DNA from: a bacterium
GTDB taxonomy: Bacteria > UBP15 > UBA6099
Direction of reading: 5' to 3'
Length of the DNA: 16,425 nucleotides
NCBI GenBank assembly: GCA_035380865.1
Contig: DAOSYA010000060.1
Coordinates: 1-16,425, forward strand
Part shown: positions 2-16,425 of the stretch, piece after piece
How positions within the stretch are numbered: position 1 is the first letter of the stretch
How the letters are laid out: each line of letters begins with the position of its first letter
Notes under the pieces: generated by a model
Seen by the model: the letters and a program-made list of their open reading frames with translations, nothing else
Database searches by the model: none
Told to the model about the DNA's origin: nothing
Made by a program: the position numbers and the translations under genes

Positions 2-415
2 TATGATGATCAGAAACAATGGACTTTTCCCGGCAATTGTTTTGATGACATCGTTCCTGTTCCGACACTGCAAAGCATTCTTGAACTAAGGATATTTGGT
101 AAACTCTCAGAGATCCATTTATGGCGAGGATCTGACGGGGAACTGCTGGGCCGAATAGTTAAAGACCTAACATGCGAAGACATCTCGCCACTGTCGCCAA
201 AAGATGAAAGTCGCCTGCTCCTAGGATACCACAGCAGGAAGATCCAGGAATGTGATAACGGATTTGTTCTTGTCAGGGACGACACGGGAGCACGCCAGGT
301 GCTGCCGCAGGTAAATGGCGATGCCCCGCAAAAACTCAATGTTAAGCATTACTTCAACGAAGATGAGGAAACCGGCACGGTGCGATATTGCCTTTGCAGA
401 TTTGTGGAGGTAAGT
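2..415 (+). CDS. 3' end (138 codons) of unknown protein, 5'-truncated by the window edge; translationally coupled to the downstream RAMP gene
   Basis: Frame 2 is open from nt 2 to TAA at 413-415 in AT-rich DNA. The listed antisense ORF 10..339 is its shadow. The stop lies 2 nt before ATG 418, with GGAGG at 406-410 inside the 3' end. No family recognised in ...RYCLCRFVEVS. Confidence 0.55.
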
Positions 416-417
416 TA

Positions 418-2742
418 ATGAGTAAAGATTATAAAAAAAATCAATACAAGCCCAAACAGCAGCAGGGGAAGAAAAAATCCTTCAAAAGTGAAAGCGGTGG
501 CAACCCAAATAATTGCAATAATTCCGGCAACCTCAAAAACAACAAGCTGTGCGAAGGTATCACCGCGCAGAATTGCAAATACAAACAGTGTTCGTACAAA
601 TGCAAAAAAGCTTTTAACAGCGGCAATCCGCCCACCCGAGCGCCATACAATTTCATTCCTCTCTACGAAAATCCATACGATGTGAGCGATGGATATCAAA
701 TCGCTTCGGGAGAAAAACTGAAACCCTGGGAGAAGAACGATACATACCACCCCGGATTACTCTCAGGTGTCATTCATCTCGATATCAAAACTGAAAAACC
801 AACCTATGTCGGCTGTGGAATCAAGAAGGAAGATGCCGACATGATTAGCAGAATCACAGATCCAGATAAAAAGAAAGCCGCTGAAAAAAAACTGAAACGG
901 GACTTCTTCTTCTCAAACAGTGAAACCCTGGAGCCCGTCATCCCCGGAAGTTCCATAAGGGGCATGACACGGTCTCTCGTTGAAATCCTTACATGCGGCA
1001 AGTTCACCGATTTTGTCGATGACAGGTTTATGTACAGGGCAGTGTTCAATAGCGATCCCGTGAACCATGAATATAAAAAAGTTTTCAAGACTCAGGACGG
1101 TTTCTATCCGTCCAGAAATATCAAATGTGGATATCTGCACATAAATGGGGTCGATTGGTCTATTATCCCCGCAAATGAACACCTAATAAACGAAGAGCTA
1201 TTCTCTTTCGTCCACATTACCCCCAAGAAATGGGAAATGAGAAACAACAAGATAAAATACAACGATCAAGATATTATAGGTAGAAAAATCAAGCTTAAAC
1301 TGCCATCAACTCTGAAGGGAAAACATATAGGCGCAGCCTCAATTAAGTATCCAGTCTGTTGCGATTACATTTTCAAAGATGAACTGGAAATGCTGTCTGG
1401 CGTCAAAAAGGCCGAATACAATTCTTACGTTGAAGCCGTAATCTTCCGCACCGGCAGCATGGGAAGCAGAAAGCATTACCATTGCGCGGTCTTTGAAAAA
1501 CAAATGCAGGATTCAAAATCCATTTCAATCGAAATCCCCGACCGCATTAAAAATGTTTATCTCGATGATACATCCGCAAAAAAGGGAATAGACGCCCGCC
1601 CTCTCAAAGACGGATCACCCGTTTTTTATGCTATAGAGAAAAAACAGAATAATGAGAAACTCGTCTTCTTCGGGCCGACAATGTTTTTCAGGCTCCCGTA
1701 CGAAAAATCTATCTCTGATTATGTCCCGCCCGAACTAAAAAATGAAAAAGCTATAGATATGGCGGAAGCCATGTTCGGCACGGTGGACGACGGGAACAGG
1801 ATTATTAAAGGCAGGTTGAGTTTCGAGGATGCTCCGCTTGACCCCCAACAAATGGAAAACAACAATAATTTTGATCCATTTCTCCAGACGCCCGCAAACC
1901 ATCCCGAAAAATATCAAGGGCTGTGGTCTCCGAAAATTCTCGGCGGCCCCAAAGCAACTGCCGTGCAGAATTATCTCCTCCAACACCCGCCCCAGAAAAG
2001 AAATGATCCTATTATGAACTGGAACTCAAAGCGCGGAACGGCAAACGCCCTGAAGAATGACGAAACACTGATACGCGGATACAAGCGCTACTGGCACAAG
2101 CCAAATGCGGATGAAAATTTCATCTTTGAAAATTTACCCGTGGAAGACAGTCAACATGTAGTCATGAAACCCGTCCGCGGCAGAGTCCACTTCTGCGGGA
2201 AAATTAAGTTTAATAATATCACTCACCTCGAACTGGGTGCGCTTCTTGCCGCCCTTGATCTACCCTCCGACATGCGCCACCAGATCGGCATGGGAAAACC
2301 CCGCGGCATGGGCAGCGTGCAAATAACACCTACCCTCGAACTGATCGACAGAAAAGAAAGATATCAGAATATGATGTTTGCCACTACCCGAACTCAGGAA
2401 AACACCAATGCCGGCGAGTCTTCCGATATAAAAGAACTAAAGAAAAACGCCCTGTCTCTTTTCCTGACAACTTTCGAACGTTGGCTGGGGAAAAAAGAGT
2501 GTGAACCACATGTGCAATTATCGTCAAATAGCAATAATGGAAACCACAGCTATGATGACATCAGAAAAAGCATCTGGGAACTTGGAAGAAACAGCGAGTT
2601 ATCAAAAATAATGGACTGGAAAAACGCCCCCGATCAAAATGACACCGACTACCACCCGATTGGAATATTTCGTGACAATAACTGGTCGAACAGATACATT
2701 CTCAGAGAAATAAAACATTTTCCTTTTAATAAAGCAGATTAG
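418..2742 (+). CDS. Large (774 aa) divergent RAMP-superfamily protein, Cas7-like, with an N-terminal Cys cluster and a roughly 240-aa insertion
   Basis: ATG 418 lies 7 nt after GGAGG; the tracker start 388 is a TTG. Motifs seen: GVIHLDIKTEKPTYVGCG (beta1 plus Gly turn, like LHIGSG); VIPGSSIRGMTRSLVEIL at nt 937-963 (compare Csm3 IPGSSLKGKMR); MFGTVDDGNRIIKGRLSFEDA at nt 1771-1833 (compare Csm3 LFGN...MGRLIFRDA); HLELGALLAAL; and a C-terminal G-rich loop GMGKPRGMGSVQI at nt 2287-2313. Cys cluster C-x11-C-x7-C-x4-C-x3-C at nt 514-603. Stop TAG at 2740-2742. Confidence 0.75.
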   Translation: MSKDYKKNQYKPKQQQGKKKSFKSESGGNPNNCNNSGNLKNNKLCEGITAQNCKYKQCSYKCKKAFNSGNPPTRAPYNFIPLYENPYDVSDGYQIASGEKLKPWEKNDTYHPGLLSGVIHLDIKTEKPTYVGCGIKKEDADMISRITDPDKKKAAEKKLKRDFFFSNSETLEPVIPGSSIRGMTRSLVEILTCGKFTDFVDDRFMYRAVFNSDPVNHEYKKVFKTQDGFYPSRNIKCGYLHINGVDWSIIPANEHLINEELFSFVHITPKKWEMRNNKIKYNDQDIIGRKIKLKLPSTLKGKHIGAASIKYPVCCDYIFKDELEMLSGVKKAEYNSYVEAVIFRTGSMGSRKHYHCAVFEKQMQDSKSISIEIPDRIKNVYLDDTSAKKGIDARPLKDGSPVFYAIEKKQNNEKLVFFGPTMFFRLPYEKSISDYVPPELKNEKAIDMAEAMFGTVDDGNRIIKGRLSFEDAPLDPQQMENNNNFDPFLQTPANHPEKYQGLWSPKILGGPKATAVQNYLLQHPPQKRNDPIMNWNSKRGTANALKNDETLIRGYKRYWHKPNADENFIFENLPVEDSQHVVMKPVRGRVHFCGKIKFNNITHLELGALLAALDLPSDMRHQIGMGKPRGMGSVQITPTLELIDRKERYQNMMFATTRTQENTNAGESSDIKELKKNALSLFLTTFERWLGKKECEPHVQLSSNSNNGNHSYDDIRKSIWELGRNSELSKIMDWKNAPDQNDTDYHPIGIFRDNNWSNRYILREIKHFPFNKAD

Positions 2743-3018
2743 TGCTGAATAATTGGCTCAAGAAGAGAACAGTGTTCAGGACTTTCTGATCTCGACTTCA
2801 GAACTACAATATTGATTTGTCTAACCCGGATTTCTCACAGAGAAATGCAGGCTAACCATGCTATAAATGGGAAGTCCATAGTGTTCGATATACCAATTAT
2901 TATATAGGTTTTCTTTTATTTATTTCAAATAAGAGCATATTTCCGAATAGTATCTCGCAGATATTGTATTGATACAAAGATAGTAAGAAAATATGAAATA
3001 TTTGAAAGGCGAGTGAAG

Positions 3019-3372
3019 ATGATTGAATCGAATCTTACAGGATATTGGCGAATTACCGAAATGGAGATGTGGGACAGCAATTACCTGGATATGGAAGTTG
3101 AGTCATATATTAAGTTTGAAGATAACGGAACCGGTGAATTTCAGTTCGGGCTCATCCACGGATGGATAGACGGTGATTTCACCGCCATGGATGAAAAACC
3201 CGCAGTAGAATTTTCATGGGAAGGCAACGACGAGATGGACCCGGCTTCAGGCCGCGGCTGGGCGATGCTGGAAGATGATATTACGCTGTCGGGTGAAATA
3301 TTTTTCCACATGGGAGATGGGTCCGGGTTCACTGCAACAAGGGAGAACAATGATCGGAAGACGAATGAATAA
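3019..3372 (+). CDS. Hypothetical small acidic protein (117 aa; GTG 3013 is an alternative start)
   Basis: ORF after a 270-bp AT-rich intergenic region. AGGCGAGTGAAG lies upstream of ATG 3019. Alternating hydrophobic pattern (YWRITEMEMWD...GEFQFGLIHGWIDGDF) suggests a beta-rich fold. The next gene starts 17 nt after its stop. Confidence 0.6.
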   Translation: MIESNLTGYWRITEMEMWDSNYLDMEVESYIKFEDNGTGEFQFGLIHGWIDGDFTAMDEKPAVEFSWEGNDEMDPASGRGWAMLEDDITLSGEIFFHMGDGSGFTATRENNDRKTNE

Positions 3373-3389: not shown

Positions 3390-4643
3390 ATGGCGAAGAA
3401 AAAAAACCAAAAGAGAGATGCCCTTAATGCTCTCCTGGAAGCGGCGGAGGCAAAAGATTTAAGAGCTTTGATAGTGGAGTTAGCAGATGACCGACCGGAG
3501 GTGCGCCGCGAGTGTGTCGTTTTTCTTAAGGAACACGTGTCTCTAAAACCGGCATCGAAATCAACAGCCGATGTTGAAGAGGCTTGGGCTTTGTGGGCCG
3601 AACTCGAGCCGGACCTTTCCGAACTCGACGAATACGGAGGCGGCGATTACGGCGTTCAGGATTATGTGGTGGAACTCCTTTATCAGCTTGCACAGAAGCT
3701 GAGGGAAAACGATATTTCGTGGGAAGTAAGACAGGAATTCCTCGAAGAAGTTCTTCCATACATTAAAAGCAGTAATGCCGGATTGGACGATGATTTATAT
3801 GAAGTAGCATATGCAGCATGTAAAACGAACGAAGAGGAGCGATACCTTGCGCAGAAATTCGAAACCCTTGGTCCTGATTGGGCAATAGAACACGCGATGA
3901 GAATATATAGGGATATAGGTGACCGGGACAAATACCTCGAACTGCATGCTCTGAAAATGAAATACGGCATGGACTATTACGATCTATCAAAATTCTACTG
4001 GGATGCCGGAGAAAAGGATAAAGCTGTCGAAGTGGCCCGCGAGGGAATGGAAAAGGGAGAGGGCAGAATGGACGAACTCAGAAATTTCCTCGCGATCCAT
4101 GCCAAAAAGAGCGGCGATCGGTCCGGATACTTTAAATTGCAATTTGAGCAGGCCACGGACAGACTCACTGCGAAGAAATACCAGGAATTCAGAAAAATAT
4201 GTGGCAAGAAAGAATGGGAAGAATATGAACCGAGGATAATGGCTGCGGCGGAAAGAATCCGGGAGGATGAACGGCTGAAAATTTTCATGTTGCGAAAAGA
4301 ATATGATAAAGCGATAGAGACACTTTCGAAGATGGATTATCCCGACGGACTTTTTGGTAAAGAGGATGTATTGAAGATTGCCGCGAAGCTGGAGAAGAGA
4401 TATCCTGAACAAGTGCTGGAATTCTATAAAACCGGGCTGGGTAACCTCAATATCAGTCTGACACGAAAAGACTACGCACGCAAAGCAACTGTCATTAAAA
4501 AAGTCCGCCATATGTGGATAGATATTATGAATGAGCCCGGCAAGTGGAAATTATTTGCCTCTCAGGTTAAAGAAGCCAACGACAGGCGTCCGGCTTTTCA
4601 ACAGGAATTCGCAAAGGTTGTACCTGGATGGAAAGAATTATAA
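3390..4643 (+). CDS. Hypothetical 417-aa alpha-helical protein (K/E-rich), unknown function
   Basis: AAGGAG lies 13 nt upstream of ATG 3390. Long ORF with protein-like composition, 17 nt downstream of the 117-aa gene. No recognised catalytic motif. Confidence 0.7.
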   Translation: MAKKKNQKRDALNALLEAAEAKDLRALIVELADDRPEVRRECVVFLKEHVSLKPASKSTADVEEAWALWAELEPDLSELDEYGGGDYGVQDYVVELLYQLAQKLRENDISWEVRQEFLEEVLPYIKSSNAGLDDDLYEVAYAACKTNEEERYLAQKFETLGPDWAIEHAMRIYRDIGDRDKYLELHALKMKYGMDYYDLSKFYWDAGEKDKAVEVAREGMEKGEGRMDELRNFLAIHAKKSGDRSGYFKLQFEQATDRLTAKKYQEFRKICGKKEWEEYEPRIMAAAERIREDERLKIFMLRKEYDKAIETLSKMDYPDGLFGKEDVLKIAAKLEKRYPEQVLEFYKTGLGNLNISLTRKDYARKATVIKKVRHMWIDIMNEPGKWKLFASQVKEANDRRPAFQQEFAKVVPGWKEL

Positions 4644-5064
4644 AATGTGACGGGAAACATGAAACAAAGGAGATTTTGGAATTCCACAATCAGCAAACAT
4701 GGAAATAGCTTTGCAAATGAACAAATTTCGAGGGTATTAATCCGAGCAGATATGATGGAAAGAAACCCCAAGAAAATGAAAAGTGCGATTGCATCAGGAC
4801 TATTTCATCGCACAGCAATCAGATTGCCGTTCCAGAGGTTCGCTGGACTCCACTGCTCCCGGTACACATTCTTCTCTATGCGCCACACCGCCGAGCCCTC
4901 TCCGTTAATCGTCCCTCGTGACATAATCCTTTGAAATAGCCACTACAATCCATGGCGGGATTTTGGTTTTTTATCTCTTACCTCTTAATGGAAAGCGGCA
5001 GTATATGAGATGAAGTGGTTACAGCGAAAAGTATATGAAACATGCAGTTTGAATTCTCAATACG

Positions 5065-5847
5065 CTAGCAATCAAAATACTTTAGGGTCATTGCAACTTC
5101 ATGCAAGTATTCGTTTTTCTCAGCATAAGAAGACAGAAAAAGAGTAATATGTGCCGAATATAATCCTTTGGACAAATCCAAAATCAAATCAATTTTACCA
5201 TCTTTATCCATATCTCCTGCCCAAATAAGTGCGGGGCCATTATCAATGTCAACCTGATCTTTTTTGAAGTCTCTAATTGTTTGAAACGGATAGTAATTTA
5301 ATTTTTGCTGTGTCAACCTTAACGCATCAGAGTTCGATCTAAAGAAGACTCTATAATCCTCGACATAAACTGTGGGATGTCTATCCTGCAATTTAGCATT
5401 GCCGATGCTTGTAAGCTGATAACTGATCTCATCTAACTTCAAATGAATTGTCATTCCTGGATAAAGATACTGATGTCCCCAGAAACTCGTTTTTATCGGC
5501 CCTTCTTCTAATGATGGAATACCTTTTATTATTAAAAACGGTTCTGATTTTTCCCTGACATATAAAACATCTTCAATATCTTCATCAGAACAAATTCCCT
5601 CTTTATTGATCTGTACCGTATATTTCTTGACACTTAATCCACTTTCGGTTTCATACAAACCCAACCGTACATCGCCGGAGCTTATTACAATCTCTTTCTG
5701 TTGGAGTGAAAGAGGCATCCCTATTGGTAGAATTTCAATGTTTGATGAATTGGTTGATTGTGGAATACTCAAACAAGGAGTGAGACTGCAAATCGTTGCT
5801 ATTATAAAAACCAGCAAAAATTCTAAATATTTGACCTTGGTTTTCAT
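5065..5847 (-). CDS. Hypothetical exported protein (N-terminal signal peptide), 260 aa
   Basis: N-terminus MKTKVKYLEFLLVFIIATICSLTPCLS has a signal-peptide character. Long ORF in the AT-rich arm. No family recognised. Confidence 0.65.
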   Translation of the reverse strand: MKTKVKYLEFLLVFIIATICSLTPCLSIPQSTNSSNIEILPIGMPLSLQQKEIVISSGDVRLGLYETESGLSVKKYTVQINKEGICSDEDIEDVLYVREKSEPFLIIKGIPSLEEGPIKTSFWGHQYLYPGMTIHLKLDEISYQLTSIGNAKLQDRHPTVYVEDYRVFFRSNSDALRLTQQKLNYYPFQTIRDFKKDQVDIDNGPALIWAGDMDKDGKIDLILDLSKGLYSAHITLFLSSYAEKNEYLHEVAMTLKYFDC

Positions 5848-5895: not shown

Positions 5896-6231
5896 CTAAT
5901 CCGTATGCAGTATATCGACGATCTTCTTGATAATTTCATCGATCTGTTCCAGTTTGAGATGTCCGATACGATAAAGGATGATACTTTTGTCAGCGGTAAA
6001 GATGCGATTCGGCCTGACGTTGCTACTTTGCTTGAGAGCGCCATTTTCAAAATCGGCATCTTCAATTGAGATAGCGTATCTGTCACCAATATTCCTGCTG
6101 GTTATCTGGCAGAGGATATAATCGTCTCCATCAAGATCGGCGATGATGAGCGCCGGACGTCTCTTTGCTTGAGTCAAGTCGGAGAAAGGAAAAGGAACAA
6201 CAACAACGTCACCTCTTATAAATTTTGCCAA
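5896..6231 (-). CDS. Type II toxin, PemK/MazF-family mRNA interferase
   Basis: N-terminus MAKFIRGDVVVVPFPFSDLTQAKRRPALII is the hallmark PemK/MazF N-terminal strand/loop. 111 aa. Overlaps the upstream antitoxin ORF by 16 nt. Confidence 0.85.
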   Translation of the reverse strand: MAKFIRGDVVVVPFPFSDLTQAKRRPALIIADLDGDDYILCQITSRNIGDRYAISIEDADFENGALKQSSNVRPNRIFTADKSIILYRIGHLKLEQIDEIIKKIVDILHTD

Positions 6232-6419
6232 GCCTGCTCCTCCTCGGGGCTCAGCCAGTCTTTTTCGAGCGATGATTCACTTGCAATCGCGATGCCTAAT
6301 TTCTCCCTGCAATCAACCGCTCTCAAAAAACGGATGAATTCCAGGACTTTTTCGACATATGATTCAGGAAGCCGATCAATTTCCTTAATGATTGAATCTT
6401 TTCCAGACATTGCTCTCAC
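6216..6419 (-). CDS. Antitoxin, DUF2281-like (LPE..VLEFIRFL motif; acidic C-terminal SESSLEKDWLSPEEEQAW)
   Basis: 67-aa ORF directly upstream of, and overlapping, the MazF-like toxin. The motif pattern is typical of DUF2281 antitoxins. Confidence 0.7.
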   Translation of the reverse strand: MRAMSGKDSIIKEIDRLPESYVEKVLEFIRFLRAVDCREKLGIAIASESSLEKDWLSPEEEQAWQNL

Positions 6420-6607: not shown

Positions 6608-7021
6608 TCACTTTTCCTTAAATCGAAGATTTCTCAATAGTTCTGCTGCGATTACTACGTACAATACTATGCCAGAAGAAAACGAGGGGAAAAGAAATAC
6701 TACTACCAATGGACCTGGAAAACCATAACTATAATCAATATATCTGGTATATTGTGGAGCGATCAATATTACCCACGATAGTGCGAAAGAAATTGTAGAA
6801 CATGCAAGAACAGGCACTATTAACCTCAATATCATAGACTTTCTTCCAAGACGGAAGTAACTGAATATACCTATGAAAGTAGGAATCCCTATGCCTGTGA
6901 TAAATATCGGGTGCAATGTTATAATCCCATGAAAAACAATTTTCGTCTCGTTAAGGAGTAATGGTGTTATCAGAAGTTGAATAATCAAGCCAATAAGAGA
7001 GAGTTTTCTTTTCTTTTTCAT
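6608..7021 (-). CDS. Small integral membrane protein, about 4 TM helices, unknown function
   Basis: Basic start MKKKRK followed by four hydrophobic 20-aa stretches. 137 aa. Confidence 0.6.
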   Translation of the reverse strand: MKKKRKLSLIGLIIQLLITPLLLNETKIVFHGIITLHPIFITGIGIPTFIGIFSYFRLGRKSMILRLIVPVLACSTISFALSWVILIAPQYTRYIDYSYGFPGPLVVVFLFPSFSSGIVLYVVIAAELLRNLRFKEK

Positions 7022-7519: not shown

Positions 7520-8536
7520 TCAGCCCACACTAACTTCATAAGCATTTCCGCCCGTGGGTTCACATTCGATTGCGCAGTCCATAAACCGCCTCACAATGCT
7601 TATGTTCGTCAACGTGTGCTTCGATGGTTTCAGTGTCCGAAATTTTCCACCGGCAGCCATCACCATCGGAATCAGGAGCTGGTCTGCAAGATATCTCCCG
7701 ACCGGAACCCCTGCCATATCGTAATTTTCATATTGCTTCACCGTTTTCCCGGCGACCTGTTCGGACGAAACCCCGAGTTCTCCGAAACCCGAGAATATTT
7801 CTGTGATATTGCTATACCTCATTTCTATCAAGAGCACATTACCCGGTCCGGGGGAATCTTTCGACTCGATGACTTGAAGACAATCTTTCCCGAACCCAAG
7901 TTTCTTCTGCACAAATTTAAGTTCCCGCCGACCTATATTGCCGGACAGGTTCGACATGATGGCATAAGCTTTCTGTCCTATTAAGTCACCTCTCTCTGAA
8001 ATATCCACCGGAGACAGTTTTTCAACCGGTTCGATATTTACAGTGAATCTTCCTCCGCCAGCAGGGTAGAATCCGCGTCGCTCCAGGTTGCACGCAACTG
8101 TCGGCCCCATCCTGTTTAAGCAAGGAAGAAAAACCTTCTCGATGAAATCATAGGGAGGTGCGAAAGGATTATGAGTCCCGCCTTCCAGTACAAGGCGAGA
8201 AGGGGATGATGCGGTTATAAGAGCAGGAAGCACAGTTTGCAATACAAGAGTGGCGCTCCCAGCCGTACCTACAGAGAACGTATATTCTCCGGGAACAACA
8301 TTGCCCGGGGTAAATTCTATTTCGGTGCTGCCAATTCCTTCTCCATCAACCTTTGCACTACTGATCTGCATCGCGGCTTTTACAGCCGTCAGGTGTTGCC
8401 TCATCAGTCCGGGCTTTTTCCGCTTGGCGCGAATATTCTCGATTCGGAATGGCTGACCCGTAACCAGTGACAGCGCAAGCGATGATCTCAGGATCTGACC
8501 GCCACCTTCTCCTTTGGAACCGTCAATTGTGATCAT
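7520..8536 (-). CDS. rtcA: RNA 3'-terminal phosphate cyclase RtcA
   Basis: [52 protein letters not shown] aligns with E. coli RtcA ([30 protein letters not shown]...KPGLLRQHLTAV), including the catalytic His in RQHLT. The C-terminus LADQLLIPM...HTLTNI matches too. The AGAGGA SD sits before ATG 8536. An in-frame upstream ATG at 8608 is preceded by GGAGGGGGG and is an alternative start, adding 24 aa. Confidence 0.9.
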   Translation of the reverse strand: [338 protein letters not shown]

Positions 8537-8784
8537 GATATTCCTCTTTCCGGTTTCCAGTATACTATCATGCCGATCAGAGAAATTGCACAGAAGTAAA
8601 TTATTCATTCGCCCCCCTCCGATACCTGCCGGGGTTCGCCTTTCCGACCCGGCAGGCTTTCTTCGACATTTCCGCCTTCTTGTTTCCCTTGATTCTCGTT
8701 ACCGGATTTCTCGTCCACTTTCTCCTCACCGATTTATATAATTCGGAGAAATCCGTTTTTCCCTTATTCATTATCGCGCCAACC

Positions 8785-9552
8785 TCACTTCCCCGGCAGT
8801 CCGGCGCACGGAGCAAACATCCCCTGCGCCATACCCATGACGAAGGTGTTTCCCGGCACGCTGGAAGCGTCGGATAATGTCTGAAGAATCCTCAGGTTCA
8901 TGAGCTCAGGATTCTTCTCAAGCATCTTCGCGGTATTTGCCAGGTTTCTGAGAGCAGCCGATTCACCGCGCGCTTTCTCGAGGACCGCCTGCCCTTCTTT
9001 CTTTGCCCTGATAACCTCGTTGAAGATTCGCTTCAGGTCCGCGGGAAACATGACATCCTTCACCTCTGTCATCTCCGCCTCAATACCGATAGGAACAAGC
9101 TCTTTTGATACTCTTTCAAAGATGTCCTTCCCGATCTCGTTTCTCTTCTCAAGCAGGTCTTCCACCGTTCGGAGGCCAATCGCAATCCTCAGCGCAATCT
9201 GAACGCTCGTGTATACAAACCCGTTGTAATTCTCAACACTGCGGTCAAGAAGCGCAGCATCGGCAATCCTGTAAGAGATTGTCATGCTCACCTTTATTCC
9301 TACATTGTCTGAAGTAAGCAATTCCTGTCCGGGCACGACCACAATGCTTGTCCTCGTGTCGAACTCCCTGGATGTAAGGACCGTAAACAGACAGATTACT
9401 CTGTGCATACCCGGCTCCAGAAGCCGATAAAATTTTCCATTGCGATACAGAACCACTACATGGTTCTCTCGTACAACAATCTTTCTAACTGCTGCGTAGT
9501 AAAAAATAACTGCCAGTACCGGAATCACTGCCGAATAAATTATGATGCTCAT
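8785..9552 (-). CDS. SPFH / band-7 (stomatin/HflKC-like) membrane protein
   Basis: N-terminal TM segment (IIIYSAVIPVLAVIFYYAAV) followed by an SPFH core (GMHRVICLFTVLTSREFDTR...VGIKVSMTISYRI...) and a coiled C-terminus. AAGGAGG lies 5 nt before ATG 9552. The longer tracker start at 9582 lacks an SD. Confidence 0.85.
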   Translation of the reverse strand: MSIIIYSAVIPVLAVIFYYAAVRKIVVRENHVVVLYRNGKFYRLLEPGMHRVICLFTVLTSREFDTRTSIVVVPGQELLTSDNVGIKVSMTISYRIADAALLDRSVENYNGFVYTSVQIALRIAIGLRTVEDLLEKRNEIGKDIFERVSKELVPIGIEAEMTEVKDVMFPADLKRIFNEVIRAKKEGQAVLEKARGESAALRNLANTAKMLEKNPELMNLRILQTLSDASSVPGNTFVMGMAQGMFAPCAGLPGK

Positions 9553-9793
9553 AACATCCTCCTTATCATATCCTGGTATCATGCCCCGTGGCGTTCGGGA
9601 ATCCCGGCGGGGGCATTTGCCCGCATGGCCGGAATTCCGTCACACCAGGACAGTAGATACTACCTGCCCCCGGGGTACTACAGTCAGGGATTTGAACCCT
9701 TTTGGCATTGAGCCGTAACCATTTGGAAGCCAATGCGTGGAATCGCAGATGAATATTTCAACTGTGACCACTGGCGATTTCCCTTCTTTAGAA

Positions 9794-10702
9794 TCAGTCA
9801 AGGAAGACCACGTTCTTTCTTGCAGGTGATTTGTCTTCCGTATTCATGAACACCCGGTGCCAGTCTTTAAGCACGATCGTTCTGTGATCCTTATGTCTCA
9901 CTTTTCCCCTCGCATAAACTTCGGGGTTCCTCTTCATGACGGTCCAGTTCCAATTCCTGACTTCTTCTTTCATGTTGTCGGGAACCTGCTTGAACAACTC
10001 GTTTCTCTCTTCTTCGGTTATCCCTCCGGGAACTGATCCGCATACATAGACCGTCTCTCCGCCAATTCTGAACAATTCCTCAACGATATGGGGCTTGCTT
10101 CCGGTTCCTCTCGAAATAGGCTCGTTTCTCAATATGGTCCTGCTGTCAACCTGTATGTCGCCGGCAGGCACAAAGAACCATTCTCCCTGTCTGACAAACC
10201 CCTTATTCCGCCTCTTATTCCTGTTTTTCCTCCTGACCCGGTTCTGCTTCTGCGCCGTCTTAACTAAGTCCGGCTTCAGAGCTTCAATAGCGCCAGACAC
10301 ACTTGACGCGGGCTTATCGCTGTCAGGAATTGCGGCAACGTACCACTGCCGTTCGTCATGCCCGCACAAAAACCTGAGATTTGTTAAGTCGGATTTGACA
10401 AATAACAACAGGTGCCTGTTCCGGGGAACACAATCCATGACCCGAACATCAACAGCATCACCCGCTTCTATAAGAAAGATTTCTCCCTTCCTATCTTTTG
10501 CCACATCAATTCTTATGTTCGGCGTATCTGATTCTTCGGGCGGCTCATCGTTTATAACTGCCTTGCCGTTTTCAAATGTGACGAACGGCCCCCATAAATC
10601 CCACCTGCTTGATCTGGCCTCATTTCTATTGTCAGCCATCTTTTCAATCCTGACCCTTGCACCGATCTTTTCGAACTTGTCTTTTATCAATCTTGTGTTC
10701 AT
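9794..10702 (-). CDS. Hypothetical 302-aa protein with an internal tandem repeat and a highly basic linker
   Basis: Long ORF, the first gene divergent from rtcR. Two copies of the motif GE(I/W)F(L/F)(I/V).AGD..VD (KGEIFLIEAGDAVDVRV and QGEWFFVPAGDIQVDSR) sit about 100 aa apart, separated by KQNRVRRKNRNKRRNK. No known family recognised. Confidence 0.7.
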   Translation of the reverse strand: MNTRLIKDKFEKIGARVRIEKMADNRNEARSSRWDLWGPFVTFENGKAVINDEPPEESDTPNIRIDVAKDRKGEIFLIEAGDAVDVRVMDCVPRNRHLLLFVKSDLTNLRFLCGHDERQWYVAAIPDSDKPASSVSGAIEALKPDLVKTAQKQNRVRRKNRNKRRNKGFVRQGEWFFVPAGDIQVDSRTILRNEPISRGTGSKPHIVEELFRIGGETVYVCGSVPGGITEEERNELFKQVPDNMKEEVRNWNWTVMKRNPEVYARGKVRHKDHRTIVLKDWHRVFMNTEDKSPARKNVVFLD

Positions 10703-10907: not shown

Positions 10908-12494
10908 ATGAAGAAAACAGTGGTAATTGGGTTGCTGGGTATCATACTTGATGCCTGCGAGAGGTCGAAGCGGTGGGAAAAGTGGAGACCCACAGTTTCG
11001 ATATGTCAGCATGAAGAATTTCTGATCGACAGGATGGAACTGCTCTGCCAGCCGAAGTTTCACAAGCTGGCAAATGATGTTATCGAAGATATCAGGACTG
11101 TATCACCCGAGACGGAAGTCAACCTTGTGTATACGGACATTGAAGACCCCTGGGATTTCGAAGAGGTCTATGGCACTCTTCATGACTTCGCTCGTAACTA
11201 TGATTTCGATCCGGATAACGAAGAATACCTGGTCCATATTACAACAGGAACACATGTTGCTCAGATCTGCCTGTTCCTTCTTACAGAGTCACATCTTATA
11301 CCCGGCAAGTTGCTGCAGGCGAGCCCACCCAAGAGAAAGTGTACGCCTATGGCGGGCAGTTATACCGTTATTGACCTGGACCTGTCCAGGTACGACAAGC
11401 TCGCTTCAAGGTTCATCAAGGAAAAATCGGACGACATTTCATTCCTCAAATCAGGCATAGATACCAGGAATGCAGACTTCAACTACTTGATAGAGCGGAT
11501 TGAACGGGTAGCGATAAACTCTAAAGCCCCGATATTGCTTATGGGACCCACTGGAGCCGGGAAATCACAGCTTGCCAGAAAGATATACGAACTCAAGAAG
11601 AACAGGCGGCAGTTGAGCGGCTCTTTCGTAGAGGTCAACTGCGCAACCGTTAGAGGAGATGCAGCAATGTCTGCTCTTTTCGGTCATGTCAGAGGTTCTT
11701 TCACAGGAGCCATGAAAGATCGGGCGGGGCTGCTTCGGGCTGCGGATGGGGGACTGCTGTTTCTCGATGAAGCAGGTGAACTTGGAATAGATGAACAAAC
11801 GATGCTGCTCCGTGCCCTGGAAGAGAAAGTCTTTGTCCCGCTCGGAGCCGACAACGAGGTCCGGAGCGATTTCCAGCTTATTTGCGGCACTAACCGCGAC
11901 CTCGCTGAAGAAGTCGCAAACAAGCGTTTCAGGGAAGACCTGCTTGCCAGAATTAATATGTGGACATTCTATATGCCAGGTCTTAAAGACCGCACGGAAG
12001 ACATAGAGCCGAACCTGCAATATGAACTCGACCAGTTCGAACAGCACAATGGTATTCACGTCATGTTTAATAAAGAAGCCCGAGAGCGGTTCATGGCATT
12101 TGCATCTTCTCCGGCTGCAAAGTGGAAGGCGAACTTTAGAGACCTGAACGGAGCCATAGCAAGAATGGCAACTCTGTCAACAGGGGGAAGAATCACCCTT
12201 GATGATGTTGACGAGGAGATAGAAAATCTCATGAGGTCGTGGCGGGAGCCTGCCGCAATAAGTACAACTTCAGAACTTCTCGATAGTATTCTGGGAGATC
12301 GGCTCGAAAAGATAGATCCTTTCGATCAGGCGCAGCTTTCATATGTCGTTCAAGTGTGCAAGGAATCCAGCACCCTGTCCGATGCCGGCAGGAAACTCTA
12401 TTCTATCTCACGCAACCGGAAAAAGAATACCAATGATGCTGATCGGCTCCGCAAGTACCTTGCCCGCTTCGACATAGACTGGAAAGATATTTAG
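10908..12494 (+). CDS. rtcR: RtcR, a sigma54-dependent transcriptional activator with an N-terminal CARF domain
   Basis: MKKTVVIGLLGIILD...RSKRWEKWRPTVSICQ parallels E. coli RtcR (MRKTVAFGFVGTVLD...RWEKWRPTLCLCQ). Also present: Walker A GPTGAGKS, the GAFTGA-like VRGSFTGA, FREDLLARIN, and a C-terminal NDADRLRKYLARF HTH, all collinear with E. coli RtcR. The tracker start at 10863 falls inside the promoter; ATG 10908 matches the homologous N-terminus. Confidence 0.92.
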   Translation: MKKTVVIGLLGIILDACERSKRWEKWRPTVSICQHEEFLIDRMELLCQPKFHKLANDVIEDIRTVSPETEVNLVYTDIEDPWDFEEVYGTLHDFARNYDFDPDNEEYLVHITTGTHVAQICLFLLTESHLIPGKLLQASPPKRKCTPMAGSYTVIDLDLSRYDKLASRFIKEKSDDISFLKSGIDTRNADFNYLIERIERVAINSKAPILLMGPTGAGKSQLARKIYELKKNRRQLSGSFVEVNCATVRGDAAMSALFGHVRGSFTGAMKDRAGLLRAADGGLLFLDEAGELGIDEQTMLLRALEEKVFVPLGADNEVRSDFQLICGTNRDLAEEVANKRFREDLLARINMWTFYMPGLKDRTEDIEPNLQYELDQFEQHNGIHVMFNKEARERFMAFASSPAAKWKANFRDLNGAIARMATLSTGGRITLDDVDEEIENLMRSWREPAAISTTSELLDSILGDRLEKIDPFDQAQLSYVVQVCKESSTLSDAGRKLYSISRNRKKNTNDADRLRKYLARFDIDWKDI

Positions 12495-12495
12495 A

Positions 12496-12521
12496 AAAGC
12501 CGGCTTCCCGTGCCGGCTTTA
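12496..12521. terminator. Bidirectional intrinsic terminator between convergent rtcR and the phosphoesterase gene
   Basis: AAAGCCGGC-ttcccgt-GCCGGCTTT forms a 9-bp GC-rich stem with T-runs on both sides. It begins 2 nt after the rtcR TAG stop. Confidence 0.6.
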
Positions 12522-12641
12522 TTGAGAATCGACGCGGTGTTGCTCCTTTTATATTTTCTCCCTCCACGGTCGTTGCGATAGCAAAGATTGCTTGTATAGA
12601 ATACGCACAGTGGAATTATTAAAGTTTCATAAAAAACACGT

Positions 12642-13664
12642 TTAAAAACTATATGCGACAAAATTTTTGGGAGCCCATTTGCTGCCGTCGGCAAAAACGA
12701 CAGTCGAAACGATGTTTCCCGTCAGTGTGTCAATATCGATAATCGTGGCGCCCTTGCGGCACCGGTCCCCGCCATACCCGCCATACCCGGTAGCACGGAT
12801 ATATTCGAGCCTCACGCCGCGCATATCGCCCCAGTAGTTGGATAAATGGTCGTGCCCGCAGAATGTCGCTTTCACATACCCGCTCTTTGCGAAAACCCTG
12901 AAAGGCGCGGCAGTCCCTTTATCGTAGGAAACGCGCTCGCCCTTTACACCGATTGCCCTGCTGGTGTAAGACAGGTCTTCATACTGCTTGACGGGTATAT
13001 GGAAGAACATGAAAGCCGGCGGGATGCGGGTCGATTCCTCCTGAATCTCCTGCGTCACAAGATTGAACCAGTCCACCTGTTCCTGTGTCATTCCCGCTCG
13101 CGAATCGTTGATCAGAAGAAGATTGACAAGCGTTTCCTCGGACGACGCGCCCTTGATGGCAAGCCTGTAGTTTCCATCTGCGGCATCGCCCCTGTAAAGC
13201 GAATTCTCAGCGGCCCTTATCATCGCATGGCCTTTATTGTAATCATCAAGGCTGTCATGGTTTCCCCATACAAAAGCCCATGGAACGTCAACGCCGCCAA
13301 GCTGCTCACAACTCCATTCGCAGCGTTCGATCCCCTGCCCGTCGGGGTTGTTGTGCCATACATCCCCCGTGGGGATCATCAGGTCGGGCTTGTATTTTCT
13401 CGCAATGCTTTTTATGTCCTGCACTGTTCCGATATCCACGACATGATTCGCGAAAAAATGCAAATCCGTTACAAGCAGAATACGGAATTTCCCATCTGAT
13501 CCGGCACGCAGGCTCAACACCTCGGGCTTAATCCCGGGCGGCGGCGGAGCCATCATGGAAAACGCGTCTTTCCCGATCGCCAGCGACGCGCCTGCCGCCA
13601 GCGCCCCGGCGAGAAATGTTCTCCTGCTGATTTGACCGCGACCGGTGTGTTCATCGTCCCGCAT
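12642..13664 (-). CDS. Tat-exported calcineurin-like metallophosphoesterase
   Basis: Twin-arginine signal (SRRTFLAGALAAGASLA). Phosphoesterase motifs VTDLHF, TGDVWHN, GNHD, FFHIP and CGHDHL. GGGAGGGG lies 6 nt before ATG 13664. The tracker start at 13700 is a TTG. Confidence 0.85.
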   Translation of the reverse strand: MRDDEHTGRGQISRRTFLAGALAAGASLAIGKDAFSMMAPPPPGIKPEVLSLRAGSDGKFRILLVTDLHFFANHVVDIGTVQDIKSIARKYKPDLMIPTGDVWHNNPDGQGIERCEWSCEQLGGVDVPWAFVWGNHDSLDDYNKGHAMIRAAENSLYRGDAADGNYRLAIKGASSEETLVNLLLINDSRAGMTQEQVDWFNLVTQEIQEESTRIPPAFMFFHIPVKQYEDLSYTSRAIGVKGERVSYDKGTAAPFRVFAKSGYVKATFCGHDHLSNYWGDMRGVRLEYIRATGYGGYGGDRCRKGATIIDIDTLTGNIVSTVVFADGSKWAPKNFVAYSF

Positions 13665-13868
13665 CGTATCCCCTCCCGATATCAATCTCTGATTATTCAA
13701 TTTAGCATATTTCGGCGTAACTATACAAACGATCCGTATTCCCGGCAGCGCGAAATTAATGAAAAATAAATACGGAACACAAGAGATATAAGCTACAGAA
13801 TCGGGCGCACGAATACATTTTGCGCAGAGAAGATGCTTTCGTGGAGCTCCGGCAACGGCAACACCGGC

Positions 13869-14108
13869 CTATTCCTCACAAGTCCGGTCCCTCTCTTCGT
13901 TCGCCGGATCATCATCTCTCCCGGCCGAAAAAGATTCGGCAAGAAAAGAATCCATCATGTTGTCGAACGCCTGTCGGACGACCGTAGCAAGGCTCGCAAA
14001 ATCTTCGTCTGTAAGCCACAGCGCGACTCCCCCGATTTTCATGAATATCATTCTGCCACAGGGCGTCCGTTTCACGAATATTGTGTTGTTGTCATTATGC
14101 GCAAGCAT
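13869..14108 (-). CDS. Small hypothetical protein (79 aa, acidic C-terminus)
   Basis: Protein-like composition with hydrophobic cores IFMKIGGVALWL and FASLATVVRQAF. The overlapping + strand ORF is R/P-rich shadow. AAGGA lies about 10 nt upstream of ATG. A strong terminator hairpin sits immediately 5' of it, so how it is expressed is unclear. Confidence 0.35.
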   Translation of the reverse strand: MLAHNDNNTIFVKRTPCGRMIFMKIGGVALWLTDEDFASLATVVRQAFDNMMDSFLAESFSAGRDDDPANEERDRTCEE

Positions 14109-14140
14109 CGATAAACCATCCTTTTGTCGTATTTGAAAAA

Positions 14141-14186
14141 GCAGAGAGAGGAAGCCCGGTGGAGGCTTCCTCTCTCCTTCAATGCC
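14141..14186 (-). terminator. Rho-independent terminator on the minus strand
   Basis: Perfect 13-bp stem GAGAGAGGAAGCC / GGCTTCCTCTCTC (14154-14166 and 14174-14186) with a 7-nt loop. On the minus strand it is followed by GCTTTTTCAAAT. Confidence 0.55.
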
Positions 14187-14764
14187 AAGGAGACATTTAT
14201 GAAAAGGGTTAAAATGGTTCCCTGTATATACATCATTTCAATCCTGCATCCGCCTTTCTTTTATTTCACCCGGAAGGCAAGACCGGCACCTCATCATTAT
14301 CCACGGCTATTTCCATTCCGCCTCGCATCTTCCACCATGTTCCCGGTCTGCATTCCTGAAGCAAGCATTTCCCCGGGGACAATTTTGCCGTCCGTCTTTT
14401 CCTTTCGCGCCATGTTCACGCCTCCGACTGCCGTTATTGCAATCAGCATATTCAAATCCATTGAAAATCGAGCTCTCATTCCGGGCAAATATCTCCTTAA
14501 TGAAATCCGTCGGCACTTTAACCGGTTGGAATCTCCCGGTATATGTGCTAAATAGCAATGCCGGGTGCATGTGCGTTCCGGCACAGCGGAGGGGCCGCCG
14601 AAACCTTGCCATGGGGAGAGCGGCCCTTTCTTACTTAAGCAGACTTTCATTCCTGTTGAAACGCATCAACAGATTTCTATTGATGAGTCCGGTCAAACAT
14701 TAACTTCTTTGCCCTTCCCCGCCGGAATTTTCGTTCCGGCGCCATCCTGAATATCGATTCCGTT

Positions 14765-15604
14765 TCAATCGAGCCTGAAGACTATTGAAACAGATATTTT
14801 CATCAATTCCATGCCGAGTTCCGCCGGTATGGGAGGAAACACGCCGCAATTGCGTATGGTGGTGATCGCGCCGTCATCCAGAACATCGAAATCCGACGAA
14901 TGGGCAACCCTGATATCCGATACCGAGCCGTTCGCGGCTATAGTGAAACTCATCACTGCCGCCCCCTCGAACCCCTCCTCACGCGCCCATGGCGGATAAT
15001 ACTTATTCCGGGCCACTATCGCCGCGACACTTTTCTTGTATCCCAGCATGACCGCGTCGAGATCGATCAAAGAGCAATCCCCGGCACATGCACGCCCGCC
15101 GTCGCATTCTTCGCCCCGCTCGACCACACCGTTCCCGCAGACCGGGATAACCATGCACAGGGAACTGCAGTAACTCCCTCCGTCGCACTCCTCGCCGGGA
15201 TCCTTTATCCCGTTTCCGCAAACAGGCACATACACCGGTTCAGGCTCCGGCGGCGGCACGTATATCTCCTCGTATGCCGGCCCGGTCGGGATATCGATTC
15301 CACCGGCATCCGCAACCTCGGCTTCGATGGGCAACTTCGGCGTCTCAGGTTCGGGCTCCGGCGGGGGTGGCTCAGGCTTTGGCACCGGTTTCGGCGGCAG
15401 TTTCTTCCTGGGCCTGGGCGGGGGTGGCTCAGGCCTGGGTTTCGGCGGTGGCGGCGGCTTCGGTTTCTCGAAAACCAGGCTGACCTTCTTTTCGTCGATC
15501 TGCGATTTATAGCTTGCGGCCATCGTGAACGGCACGGAAGCCAGCAGCAAATGAAACACGATAGATATCACTATCCCGATATTGCTCACGGAAGGACGCT
15601 TCAT
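14765..15604 (-). CDS. tonB: TonB energy transducer with a Pro-rich spacer and two inserted Myxococcus-type cysteine-rich repeats
   Basis: N-terminal TM anchor, then a (KP/EP)n region. Two repeats (CGNGIKDPGEECDGGSYCSSLC and CGNGVVERGEECDGGRACAGDCS) match the CGDGxxxxGEECDDGN 'Myxococcus cysteine-rich repeat' consensus. The C-terminal TonB_C-like domain is YPPWAREEGFEGAAVMSFTIAANGSVSDIRVAHSSDFDVLD. GGAGG lies before ATG 15604, which overlaps the exbD stop as TAATG. Confidence 0.85.
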   Translation of the reverse strand: MKRPSVSNIGIVISIVFHLLLASVPFTMAASYKSQIDEKKVSLVFEKPKPPPPPKPRPEPPPPRPRKKLPPKPVPKPEPPPPEPEPETPKLPIEAEVADAGGIDIPTGPAYEEIYVPPPEPEPVYVPVCGNGIKDPGEECDGGSYCSSLCMVIPVCGNGVVERGEECDGGRACAGDCSLIDLDAVMLGYKKSVAAIVARNKYYPPWAREEGFEGAAVMSFTIAANGSVSDIRVAHSSDFDVLDDGAITTIRNCGVFPPIPAELGMELMKISVSIVFRLD

Positions 15605-16038
15605 TACTCCCCTCCCCCATCCGTGCCCGCGTCAGCGTCCGATTTGAGCTTTGTTGAGATGGTGACACCGGAAGCGTTACATATCTTCGCGTAGTCCATC
15701 ACCGTCACCACCGGCTGGAGAAGCGTCCCCCTGTCCGCCTTGATGATCACGACCTTTCGCTCATTCGCCTCGATCATCCCGCACAGTTCATGCTTTACAC
15801 CGTCCACATCGACCGGTTTCCCGTTCAGAAAATATTTTTCGTCCCTGGTAATCGAGACAATAATATCCATCTTGTCCTGATTGCGGGCGGCCTGCGCCTT
15901 CGGCAAATCTATCTTCATGCCCGGCTGCTTGATGAACTGGCTGGTGAGCAGAAAAAACAGGAGAAGCAGAAACACGATATCGACAAGCGGCGCTATGTCA
16001 AAATGCACATCGACTTTTTTGCGGCCCTCAAACTCCAT
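15604..16038 (-). CDS. exbD: ExbD/TolR biopolymer transport protein
   Basis: N-terminus MEFEGRKKVDVHFDIAPLVDIVFLLLLFFL is a typical ExbD N-terminal TM. GGAGG lies 8 nt before ATG 16038; the longer tracker start at 16053 has no SD. Confidence 0.85.
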   Translation of the reverse strand: MEFEGRKKVDVHFDIAPLVDIVFLLLLFFLLTSQFIKQPGMKIDLPKAQAARNQDKMDIIVSITRDEKYFLNGKPVDVDGVKHELCGMIEANERKVVIIKADRGTLLQPVVTVMDYAKICNASGVTISTKLKSDADAGTDGGGE

Positions 16039-16425
16039 GATCCGCGCCTCCATCGCCTGCGCCGGCGGGCTCCTGCCGTTTCGGCTCGCACGCCAGGTTA
16101 TATCCCCCCATTATCTCCGGAAAGATAACGGCGGAATCCTTGATGGATGATTCCATGTTGTCGACACGTCCCTCTATGAAATGGAACAGGATCATGACCG
16201 GGATGGCGACTGCGAGCCCCGCGGCGGTCGTGATAAGAGCCTCGGAAATACCGCCCGCGAGATCGGTTGCATCCACCTGCCCGCCGAGCGCCTGAATGGT
16301 CATGAACGCGCGGATCATCCCCACAACCGTGCCCAGCAGCCCCATCAGCGGCGAGATATGGGCGATGATGCCAAGGGTGTTCACGTTTCGTTCGAGATCA
16401 CGCCGCTGGTTGCTGCCCACCCGCC
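16028..16425 (-). CDS. exbB: ExbB/TolQ proton-channel protein, 3' part only (5' end beyond the window)
   Basis: The C-terminal region carries a conserved MotA/TolQ/ExbB signature (PLMGLLGTVVGMIRAFMTIQALGG...ISEALITTAAGLAVAIPVMILF). The ORF runs off the window end. Confidence 0.85.
   Translation of the reverse strand, partial: RVGSNQRRDLERNVNTLGIIAHISPLMGLLGTVVGMIRAFMTIQALGGQVDATDLAGGISEALITTAAGLAVAIPVMILFHFIEGRVDNMESSIKDSAVIFPEIMGGYNLACEPKRQEPAGAGDGGADHGV

Follow-up and report, generated by a model that had tools for sequence, protein, structure and literature searches.

A Cas7-like protein isolated at a contig end is a divergent member of the type III-D Cas7-insertion family

The window analyzed here is an entire contig of 16,425 nt (16.4 kb), and close to its left end it carries an open reading frame (ORF) for a 774-residue protein that resembles Cas7-group RAMPs. 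A first-pass annotation regarded this protein as an orphan, coupled to an unrecognisable upstream gene, and suggested that it might be a new RAMP-based effector or a CRISPR-independent module. The locus raises the question of whether the protein stands alone or belongs to an effector complex whose other genes lie elsewhere. As argued below, the ORF very probably encodes the Cas7-insertion subunit, whose gene comes last in the effector operon of type III-D systems. It is equivalent to the module of Cas7.4, insertion (INS) domain, and C-terminal extension (CTE) in III-D2 Cas7x3 and Cas7-11.

The ORF is present as annotated, starting with the ATG at position 418 (Table 1). The TAA stop codon of the preceding gene (416-418) shares one base with this start, giving the sequence TAATG, and the one-base overlap of ORFs 2-418 and 418-2742 supports the translational coupling that had been proposed. 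The upstream gene is in fact recognisable as csx19, which encodes a hallmark subunit of type III-D systems. Its product matched NCBIfam TIGR03984 with 73.1 bits (cutoff 35) over profile positions 32-167 of 170, and its C-terminus aligned through to the profile end. The PADLOC profile of Csx19 gave an E-value of 2.8e-16 for the same ORF, and the precomputed Pfam match was PF27799. The N-terminal 30-70 residues of the csx19 product are cut off by the contig end.

Table 1. Features of the cas7-insertion locus and of its encoded protein (positions in the window)
Feature	Position	Strand	Evidence
3' part of csx19, 138 codons and stop	2..418	+	NCBIfam TIGR03984, PADLOC, precomputed Pfam
Shine-Dalgarno sequence GGAGG, 7 nt before ATG 418	406..410	+	Read directly from sequence
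Gene for the 774-aa Cas7-insertion protein (TIGR03986; a type III-D Cas7 carrying INS and CTE)	418..2742	+	TIGR03986, PADLOC, Pfam, Foldseek, and PDB profile matches
Lineage-specific N-terminal tail, residues 1-74, Lys/Asn-rich	418..639	+	Outside all family profiles
N-terminal half of Cas7 RRM core, residues 75-209 (APYNFIP to FMYRAV); approximate boundaries	640..1044	+	Family profile against 8s9t_E
INS domain, approximately residues 210-414, mostly beta strands; approximate boundaries	1045..1659	+	Model secondary structure; between two core stretches aligned to 8s9t_E
C-terminal half of Cas7 core, approximately residues 415-655	1660..2382	+	Motifs, conservation, alignment to 8s9t_E
Helical C-terminal extension (CTE-like), approximately residues 656-774	2383..2739	+	AF2 helices; Cas7-11e profile

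A comparison with Cas7 profiles and a structure prediction had been proposed as checks of the RAMP assignment, and both were carried out. The 774-residue protein passed the cutoff of TIGR03986 in NCBIfam (341.6 bits, cutoff 161.35, E = 1.5e-101, profile positions 1-528 of 568), which is also the name that NCBI already gives to it, as well as that of the Pfam RAMPs family (43.6 bits, cutoff 22.1). The PADLOC profile Cas7_IIId matched residues 72-762 with an E-value of 2.3e-117 (profile positions 14-537 of 546). The AF2 model had a pLDDT of 75.6 and a pTM of 0.77. [quoted passage not shown] The TM-scores to 8S9T_E were moderate (0.54/0.60, with an rmsd of 8-9 Å), probably because of a different domain orientation. 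A search of the PDB with the family profile gave 9wxh_D (1.4e-50) and 8s9t_E (4.4e-43). Together, TIGR03986, PADLOC, Pfam RAMPs, and Foldseek bear out the description of the protein as a RAMP of the Cas7 group that carries a large insertion. Its nearest relatives share only 34-37% identity with it, and it is a divergent member of an already known family. The labels of orphan, new RAMP-based effector, and CRISPR-independent module are not supported, because the TIGR03986 cutoff is passed, csx19 adjoins the gene, and the closest fold is that of a solved type III-Dv subunit.

Other RAMP families matched far less well. The cutoffs of Csm3 (19 bits, cutoff 90) and Csx7 (23.4 bits, cutoff 108) were missed, with the alignment limited to the G-rich loop. 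Against the Cas7-11/gRAMP profiles of types III-E and III-I, the protein scored 62 bits (cutoff 700) and 27.5 bits (cutoff 800), with matches confined to the C-terminal portion of these profiles. The protein contains one Cas7 core and, as the first-pass annotation had stated, does not have the multi-Cas7 layout of gRAMP/Cas7-11. It is likewise not Cas10, since the GG[DE][DE] motif is absent and no Cas10 profile of Pfam, NCBIfam, or PADLOC matched it.

The three RAMP elements that had been read from the translation are all present, namely VIPGSSIRG at residues 174-182 (nt 937-963), FGTVDD at 453-458 with KGRLSFEDA at 464-472 (together nt 1774-1833), and GMGKPRGMG at 624-632 (nt 2287-2313). The estimate of about 140 residues beyond the last G-rich loop was accurate (142 residues), whereas the first loop and the FG segment, said to be about 240 residues apart, are separated by about 270. 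In the N-terminal half of the core, family-profile positions 13-132 align to residues 110-226 of 8s9t_E, and P76, N78, F79, R181, G182, R185, and R207 are invariant. The AF2 model shows strands from 235 to 419. The C-terminal half of the core, which holds the motifs PKxxxxPKxT and RGYKRYWHK in addition to the second and third elements, is the portion common to this protein and Cas7.4 of Cas7-11. In the CTE-like region, helices are modeled at 669-753, and positions 1472-1617 of the 1636 in the Cas7-11e profile are matched. The features that made the protein look oversized, its long insertion and its extended C-terminus, correspond to the INS and CTE domains published for the TIGR03986-type family (PMC13294483; PMC11026444). 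All of the 37 invariant columns of the family are kept in the protein.

The only unusual part of the 774-residue protein is its N-terminal tail with five cysteines. The reported spacing is exact: Cys 33, 45, 53, 58, and 62 form C-x11-C-x7-C-x4-C-x3-C (nt 514-603). Thus, 5 of the 13 cysteines fall inside one 30-residue window, for which position shuffling gave a P value of about 0.007. Residues 1-71 have a pLDDT below 50 in the AF2 model and are predicted to be disordered. A search of the tail against Pfam with E-values up to 10 returned only noise, and none of about 88 relatives at the protein level or 84 at the genomic level carried the tail. A tentative and rather unlikely reading of the cysteine cluster is that the tail may be an appendage, specific to this lineage, that binds zinc and nucleic acid and would give the complex another way to engage RNA or a partner.

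Accessory appendages at the N- and C-termini are highly variable across the TIGR03986 family. Elsewhere in the family, the accessory position is taken by an N-terminal domain of approximately 100 residues, or by a C-terminal domain of approximately 100 residues, which in a few cases adopts a CSD or S1 fold. We considered whether the N-terminal accessory domains found in some relatives correspond to the C-terminal extensions found in others; hhalign gave a probability of 0.3%, with no detectable similarity. The unique Cys-rich basic tail occupies the same position as the uncharacterised N-terminal domain of the Synechocystis subunit.

Because the contig starts within csx19, the genes for Cas10, Cas5, and the other Cas7 subunits are out of view. 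The apparent isolation of the 774-residue protein is a product of this contig break in the gene just upstream. That the remaining operon genes are missing reflects the assembly and does not demonstrate their absence from the genome. Four contigs carry the protein, each 10-20 kb in length, and the one shown begins at the window's own start point. The 34 nt that open the window had no exact match in GTDB representative genomes, a 40-mer from csx19 had none in JGI metagenomes, and an overlapping or longer contig that extends csx19 upstream was not found in either collection.

The surroundings of related genes were counted in 80 GTDB loci and in L002, L003, and L005, the three nearest relatives whose context could be used, with denominators that vary between the counts. 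These three relatives have the order Cas10 - Cas7 - Cas5_IIId - Cas7x2 - Csx19 - TIGR03986. A csx19 gene lies directly upstream of the TIGR03986 gene in 69 of 74 related loci, and a co-oriented cas10 lies 4-9 kb upstream in 59 of 62; in the other three (L041, L053, and L064), the cas10 profile was unmatched in that interval. The neighborhoods of homologues, which the first-pass annotation had proposed to inspect, thus come near the contrary case that it had named, a known subunit in an ordinary type III operon, with the operon itself out of view here. No array was present within at least 9 kb downstream in 30 of 36 related loci, nor within 9 kb on either side in 22 of 29. Because most relatives have no downstream array, the missing array in the window is typical and carries no information. 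Most TIGR03986 loci lack an array over about 10 kb, so a gene of this kind should not be called an orphan on the ground that none is in view.

The annotated absence of a CRISPR array from the window was confirmed by Tandem Repeats Finder, a direct-repeat search, and a k-mer spacing detector, all of which were empty. Pfam, NCBIfam, PADLOC, and PHROGs scans of ORFs across the downstream 13.7 kb also agreed that cas1, cas2, cas6, and cas10 are absent, and no Rfam family or tRNA was found. The ORFs at 3013-3372, 3390-4643, and 4647-4934 were considered as cas or ancillary genes and rejected; Pfam, NCBIfam, and PHROGs gave no matches, and PADLOC gave one marginal match, to DUF499 (E = 0.0044), in a 417-residue protein. 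This protein was modeled as a helical-repeat solenoid of a generic kind that had no specific counterpart in the PDB; its relatives are found in restriction-modification and Abi/Fic islands rather than in CRISPR loci. A PemK/MazF toxin gene is also located downstream, and the region resembles a mixed defence and mobile island of low GC content. The proposed AT-rich island holds to the extent that the 5' half of the window is moderately AT-richer: the GC content is 0.44 in the gene, 0.33-0.46 as far as position 7519, and 0.49-0.54 in the remainder.

Two other explanations were weighed against the type III-D operon. It is very improbable that csx19 and the RAMP gene act as a new effector without Cas10 or a crRNA from a nearby array. 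The 13.7 kb downstream without an array, cas1, cas2, cas6, or cas10 would fit such a module, as would the three of 62 related loci without a cas10 match upstream and the unique N-terminal tail. However, the window starts inside csx19, and the upstream side of the locus is not represented in it. In the solved complex, Csx19 is placed between Cas5 and Cas10, and assembly requires it (PMC11026444), a role that makes little sense without these two proteins. The prevalence of cas10 upstream of the relatives also argues against a free-standing pair, and the array-free downstream flanks common among them take the weight from the missing array.

We regard it as equally improbable that the gene is part of a decaying remnant, the surviving tail of a type III-D operon broken upstream by an event such as an insertion or a deletion, and no longer contributes to a working system. 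Contig breaks often occur at repeats or mobile elements, and the downstream side, with its helical-repeat gene, toxin gene, and low GC content, looks like a defence and mobile island. On the other hand, both reading frames are intact, the strong GGAGG sequence and the TAATG coupling remain in place, and no invariant family residue has been lost. The C-terminus of Csx19 also reaches the end of its profile.

The preferred explanation therefore remains the terminal gene of a type III-D effector operon. The family membership, the fold, and the adjoining csx19 are shown here. The points against it are that the upstream operon is out of view, that the 13.7 kb downstream holds no cas6, cas1, cas2, or array, that identity to the nearest relatives is low and the TM-scores to 8S9T_E are moderate, that functional residues of the Synechocystis subunit have no confident counterparts in the sequence, and that the tail has no counterpart in characterised members. 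From the relatives and the solved complexes, we infer the remaining operon and the mechanism. The operon would have the form cas10 - cas7 - cas5(csx10)/cas11 - cas7x2 - csx19 - cas7-insertion, with the present gene in the last place. The protein would have a divergent RRM core without the thumb hairpin, which is missing from its homologues (PMC13294483). By analogy with the Synechocystis homologue, the INS domain may cradle the last 6 or so nucleotides of the crRNA and present the seed for pairing with the target RNA, and the INS and CTE domains may contact the guide-target duplex. RNA cutting and Cas10 signalling would be performed by other subunits, and the Cas7-insertion subunit probably does not act as a cleavage site. 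In the solved type III-Dv complex, the subunits are present in single copies, the seed is exposed by INS, and there is no kinked cleavage geometry at Cas7-insertion (PMC11026444). The main value of the analysis is the correct annotation, by which a suspected new RAMP effector becomes a known type III-D Cas7-insertion subunit.

The closest characterised system is the type III-Dv effector of Synechocystis sp. PCC 6803 (PDB 8S9T-8S9X), in which Cas7-insertion is chain E (Schwartz et al. 2024, PMC11026444). The two proteins share the TIGR03986 family, the best fold match, a Cas7 core split by a large insertion, and a gene that immediately follows csx19 and closes the set of effector genes. Both conserved cores start late, at residue 75 here and at about residue 110 in Synechocystis, where the preceding region is unresolved by cryo-EM. 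The identity is only 17% (Foldseek), and the N-terminus of the Synechocystis protein is a 112-residue uncharacterised domain, whereas that of the present protein is a 74-residue Lys/Asn/Cys-rich tail. Functional residues of the Synechocystis subunit (F307, F767, and K396/R400-D616) have no confident mapping onto the present sequence. Unlike the cas7-cas5-cas11 fusion of Synechocystis, the closest relatives of the present gene have separate cas7 and cas5 genes.

[quoted passage not shown] 2026, PMC13294483). The same divergent RRM, INS, and CTE without a thumb hairpin are found in both, but in Cas7x3 they are fused to two more Cas7 domains (1235 residues) in a system without Csx19, whereas the present protein is a stand-alone subunit encoded after csx19. 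Cas7-11e/gRAMP of type III-E (e.g., PDB 7WAH, 8GS2, and 7Y80) has a homologous C-terminal region of Cas7.4, insertion, and C-terminal part, although the present protein reaches only 62 bits against its cutoff of 700 and matches the last part of the profile. Csm5 and Cmr1-Cmr6, which are capping subunits of the Cas7 family in types III-A and III-B, do not have INS or CTE domains and gave no significant full-length match, with only the G-rich loop aligned at 16-23 bits, well short of the cutoffs. [quoted passage not shown]

The 774-aa protein is very probably a divergent but ordinary Cas7-insertion subunit of the TIGR03986 family, encoded by the last gene of a type III-D effector operon that the contig boundary truncates. 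The NCBIfam profile TIGR03986 ("type III CRISPR-associated RAMP protein") scored 341.6 bits (cutoff 161.35; E = 1.5e-101), the PADLOC profile Cas7_IIId aligned with residues 72–762 (E = 2.3e-117), and the match to Pfam RAMPs exceeded its cutoff. On these profile matches, the assignment to RAMP proteins made in the first-pass annotation is correct, and NCBI has already given the TIGR03986 name to an identical sequence. The nearest relatives share just 34–37% identity with it. Cas7-11e, Csm3, Csx7, and Cmr6 gave weaker matches, all far under their cutoffs, and were rejected as identities.

The motifs that had been read from the sequence are all present: VIPGSSIRG (residues 174–182), FGTVDD...KGRLSFEDA (453–472), and GMGKPRGMG (624–632), with no GGDD motif. 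Cysteines 33, 45, 53, 58, and 62 reproduce exactly the proposed spacing C-x11-C-x7-C-x4-C-x3-C, a clustering that is improbable by chance (P ~0.007). The approximately 140 aa proposed to follow the last loop agree with the measured 142 aa, whereas the distance between the first G-rich loop and the FG segment is approximately 270 aa, not the suggested insertion of approximately 240 aa.

An AlphaFold2 model, prepared with an alignment of 37 relatives as input, had a mean pLDDT of 75.6 and a pTM of 0.77. [quoted passage not shown] The family profile matched 9wxh_D (type III-D2 Cas7x3; 1.4e-50) and 8s9t_E (4.4e-43) in the PDB. The profile and structure comparisons that had been proposed as checks both gave significant matches, to RAMP-family profiles and Cas7-insertion structures, respectively. 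Both features behind the impression of an oversized protein, the large insertion and a tail of approximately 140 aa, correspond to published hallmarks of the family.

The gene upstream, previously regarded as unrecognisable, encodes Csx19. Its fragment (2–418), whose stop codon overlaps the start of the 774-aa ORF (TAATG), scored 73.1 bits with TIGR03984 (cutoff 35) over profile positions 32–167 of 170, and both PADLOC Csx19 and the precomputed PF27799 gave the same identity. Csx19 is a type III-D-specific subunit, placed between Cas5 and Cas10 and needed for assembly in the solved complex (PMC11026444). The window is approximately the entire 16.4-kb contig (CAZABR010000084.1, GCA_964483305.1) and starts inside csx19; therefore, the remaining operon would lie beyond the contig end, out of view. 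No overlapping or longer contig was found with the first 34 nt in GTDB representatives or with a csx19 40-mer in JGI metagenomes. The three nearest relatives with an informative gene neighbourhood (loci L002, L003, and L005) have just 34% identity to the query, and all show the order Cas10d, Cas7_IIId (~210 aa), Cas5_IIId (~550 aa), double Cas7 (~490 aa), Csx19 (~200 aa), and TIGR03986, their csx19/cas7 genes being overlapping or tightly spaced, as in the window. The interpretation as an orphan and possibly new effector is unsupported, the protein being a TIGR03986 member with Csx19 adjoining it in what is very probably an operon truncated at the contig boundary.

Scanning GTDB representative genomes by sequence pattern gave at least 541 loci encoding relatives, and the best 80, together with L002, L003, and L005, were surveyed with iterated profiles for Csx19, Cas10, Cas6, and Cas1 and a simple array detector. 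This neighbourhood search, also suggested earlier, revealed a typical arrangement, with csx19 directly upstream in 69 of the 74 loci having at least 700 nt upstream and cas10 on the same strand 4–9 kb upstream in 59/62 loci having at least 7 kb upstream. Of the 36 loci with at least 9 kb of downstream sequence, 30 lacked an array of at least four repeats on that side; of the 29 with at least 9 kb in both directions, 22 lacked one within ~9–10 kb on either side. Few survey loci gave cas6 or cas1 matches, both profiles being built from very few seeds and probably insensitive. The first-pass statement on missing components was borne out: array searches detected no repeat array in the window, and cas1, cas2, cas6, and cas10 were not among the scanned ORFs downstream of the 774-aa gene. 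Because array-free flanks are usual in TIGR03986 loci, this absence over 13.7 kb downstream is uninformative about orphan status.

The ancillary genes beside the three closest operons vary. L002 (2877–4058; 12416–20953) has a Card1/Csx1-like CARF nuclease, Csx3, Cas6, CSD/HORMA-like genes, and RT-Cas1-Cas2; L005 has a CHAT-SAVED protease (702–2855), and L003 an nSTAND3/AAA protein and PIN toxin-antitoxin pairs (12446–13411).

Features of the window, with positions and strands
Feature	Position	Strand	Remarks
GGAGG	406-410	+	7 nt before ATG 418
774-aa ORF	418-2742	+	start ATG 418
119-aa ORF	3013-3372	+	no family match
417-aa ORF	3390-4643	+	acidic, all-helical
95-aa ORF	4647-4934	+	no family match; uncalled in public record
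260-aa ORF	5065-5847	-	hydrophobic N-terminus; no family match; 35-41% GC stretch
PemK/MazF-like toxin gene	5896-6231	-	lowest-GC part of window
64-67-aa ORF	6216-6419	-	precedes and overlaps toxin gene; probably antitoxin gene
137-aa ORF	6608-7021	-	resembles multi-pass membrane protein; no family match; 35-41% GC stretch
rtcA	7520-8608	-	
71-aa ORF	8601-8816	-	
SPFH/Band 7 gene	8785-9582	-	
Unassigned 302-aa gene	9794-10702	-	
rtcR	10863 or 10908-12494	+	CARF-domain sigma-54 activator, NF038308 800 bits; divergent from rtcA - SPFH/Band 7 - 302-aa cluster
TAT-signal metallophosphoesterase gene	12642-13700	-	
tonB-exbD-exbB cluster	14765-16420	-	

The GC content steps from 0.33–0.46 in the first 7.5 kb of the window (33% in the 270-nt spacer after the 774-aa gene) to 0.49–0.54 beyond, which is compatible with a defence island beside core genes. 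The region 12642–16420 (50–58% GC) has a core-genome look, and the Gly-rich direct repeats at 15237–15461 are inside the tonB linker. The 417-aa protein matched no Pfam, NCBIfam, or PHROGs family, and PADLOC DUF499 was marginal (E = 0.0044). Its strongly conserved family (>741 clusters), which carries no functional annotation beyond "hypothetical" or, in the best case, "TPR repeat protein", occurs in Desulfobulbaceae, Nitrospira, Acidobacteria, Pirellulales, and Syntrophales, with full-length identities of 51–58% for nearly all relatives among the matches listed. Relatives are encoded between the hsdS/SEC-C and hsdM genes of a type I restriction-modification operon and also adjoin Fic and AbiEi/AbiEii; the genes preceding them showed no similarity to the 119-aa protein. 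Its AlphaFold2 model (pLDDT 91.4) shows a generic TPR-like solenoid, for which the PDB gave no specific match, and the protein is a candidate passenger or adaptor of defence islands. It is possible that the 95-aa ORF is not a real gene. The window has no rtcB, and the CARF-containing rtcR is situated within a few kb of a type III CRISPR operon, perhaps by coincidence.

[quoted passage not shown] Through its insertion domain it keeps the last six crRNA nucleotides in place, their Watson-Crick faces exposed as the target-binding seed, and the RNA geometry suggests no cleavage there; the three catalytic sites of the complex are each independently abolished by a single Cas7-domain aspartate mutation (PMC11026444). 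In type III-D2, Cas7.4, the insertion domain (INS), and the C-terminal extension (CTE) recognise a helical segment of the guide-target duplex (PMC13294483). By homology, the query would act as these counterparts do, and from its sequence the role of Synechocystis Cas7-insertion is expected because all 37 of the 37 invariant family-alignment columns are retained. Synechocystis F307, F767, and K396/R400-D616 could not be assigned confident counterpart positions in the query.

The N-terminal tail is the sole mildly novel element of the 774-aa protein. Residues 1–74 are Lys/Asn-rich, carry the five cysteines, lie outside all family profiles, matched no Pfam family, and are predicted to be disordered in the AlphaFold2 model (pLDDT <50 for residues 1–71). 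None of the ~88 protein relatives with an identifiable core-start motif had more than three cysteines before the core, and just two of 84 genomic relatives had several, both being read-through artefacts. The ends of the family are variable: 27 relatives have an N-terminal domain of 75–135 residues and 28 a C-terminal extension of 80–140 residues, with no detectable similarity between the two kinds of addition (hhalign probability 0.3%), and a few (P0015, P0033, and P0067) have cold-shock (CSD) or S1 domains. One member, P0056 (1016 aa), is fused with AAA/SMC-type ATPase domains. The Synechocystis protein has an uncharacterised N-terminal domain of 112 residues that is invisible in the cryo-EM map (PMC11026444). 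In the family-profile alignment its conserved core begins at approximately residue 110, and this domain and the Cys-rich tail of the query share the same position.
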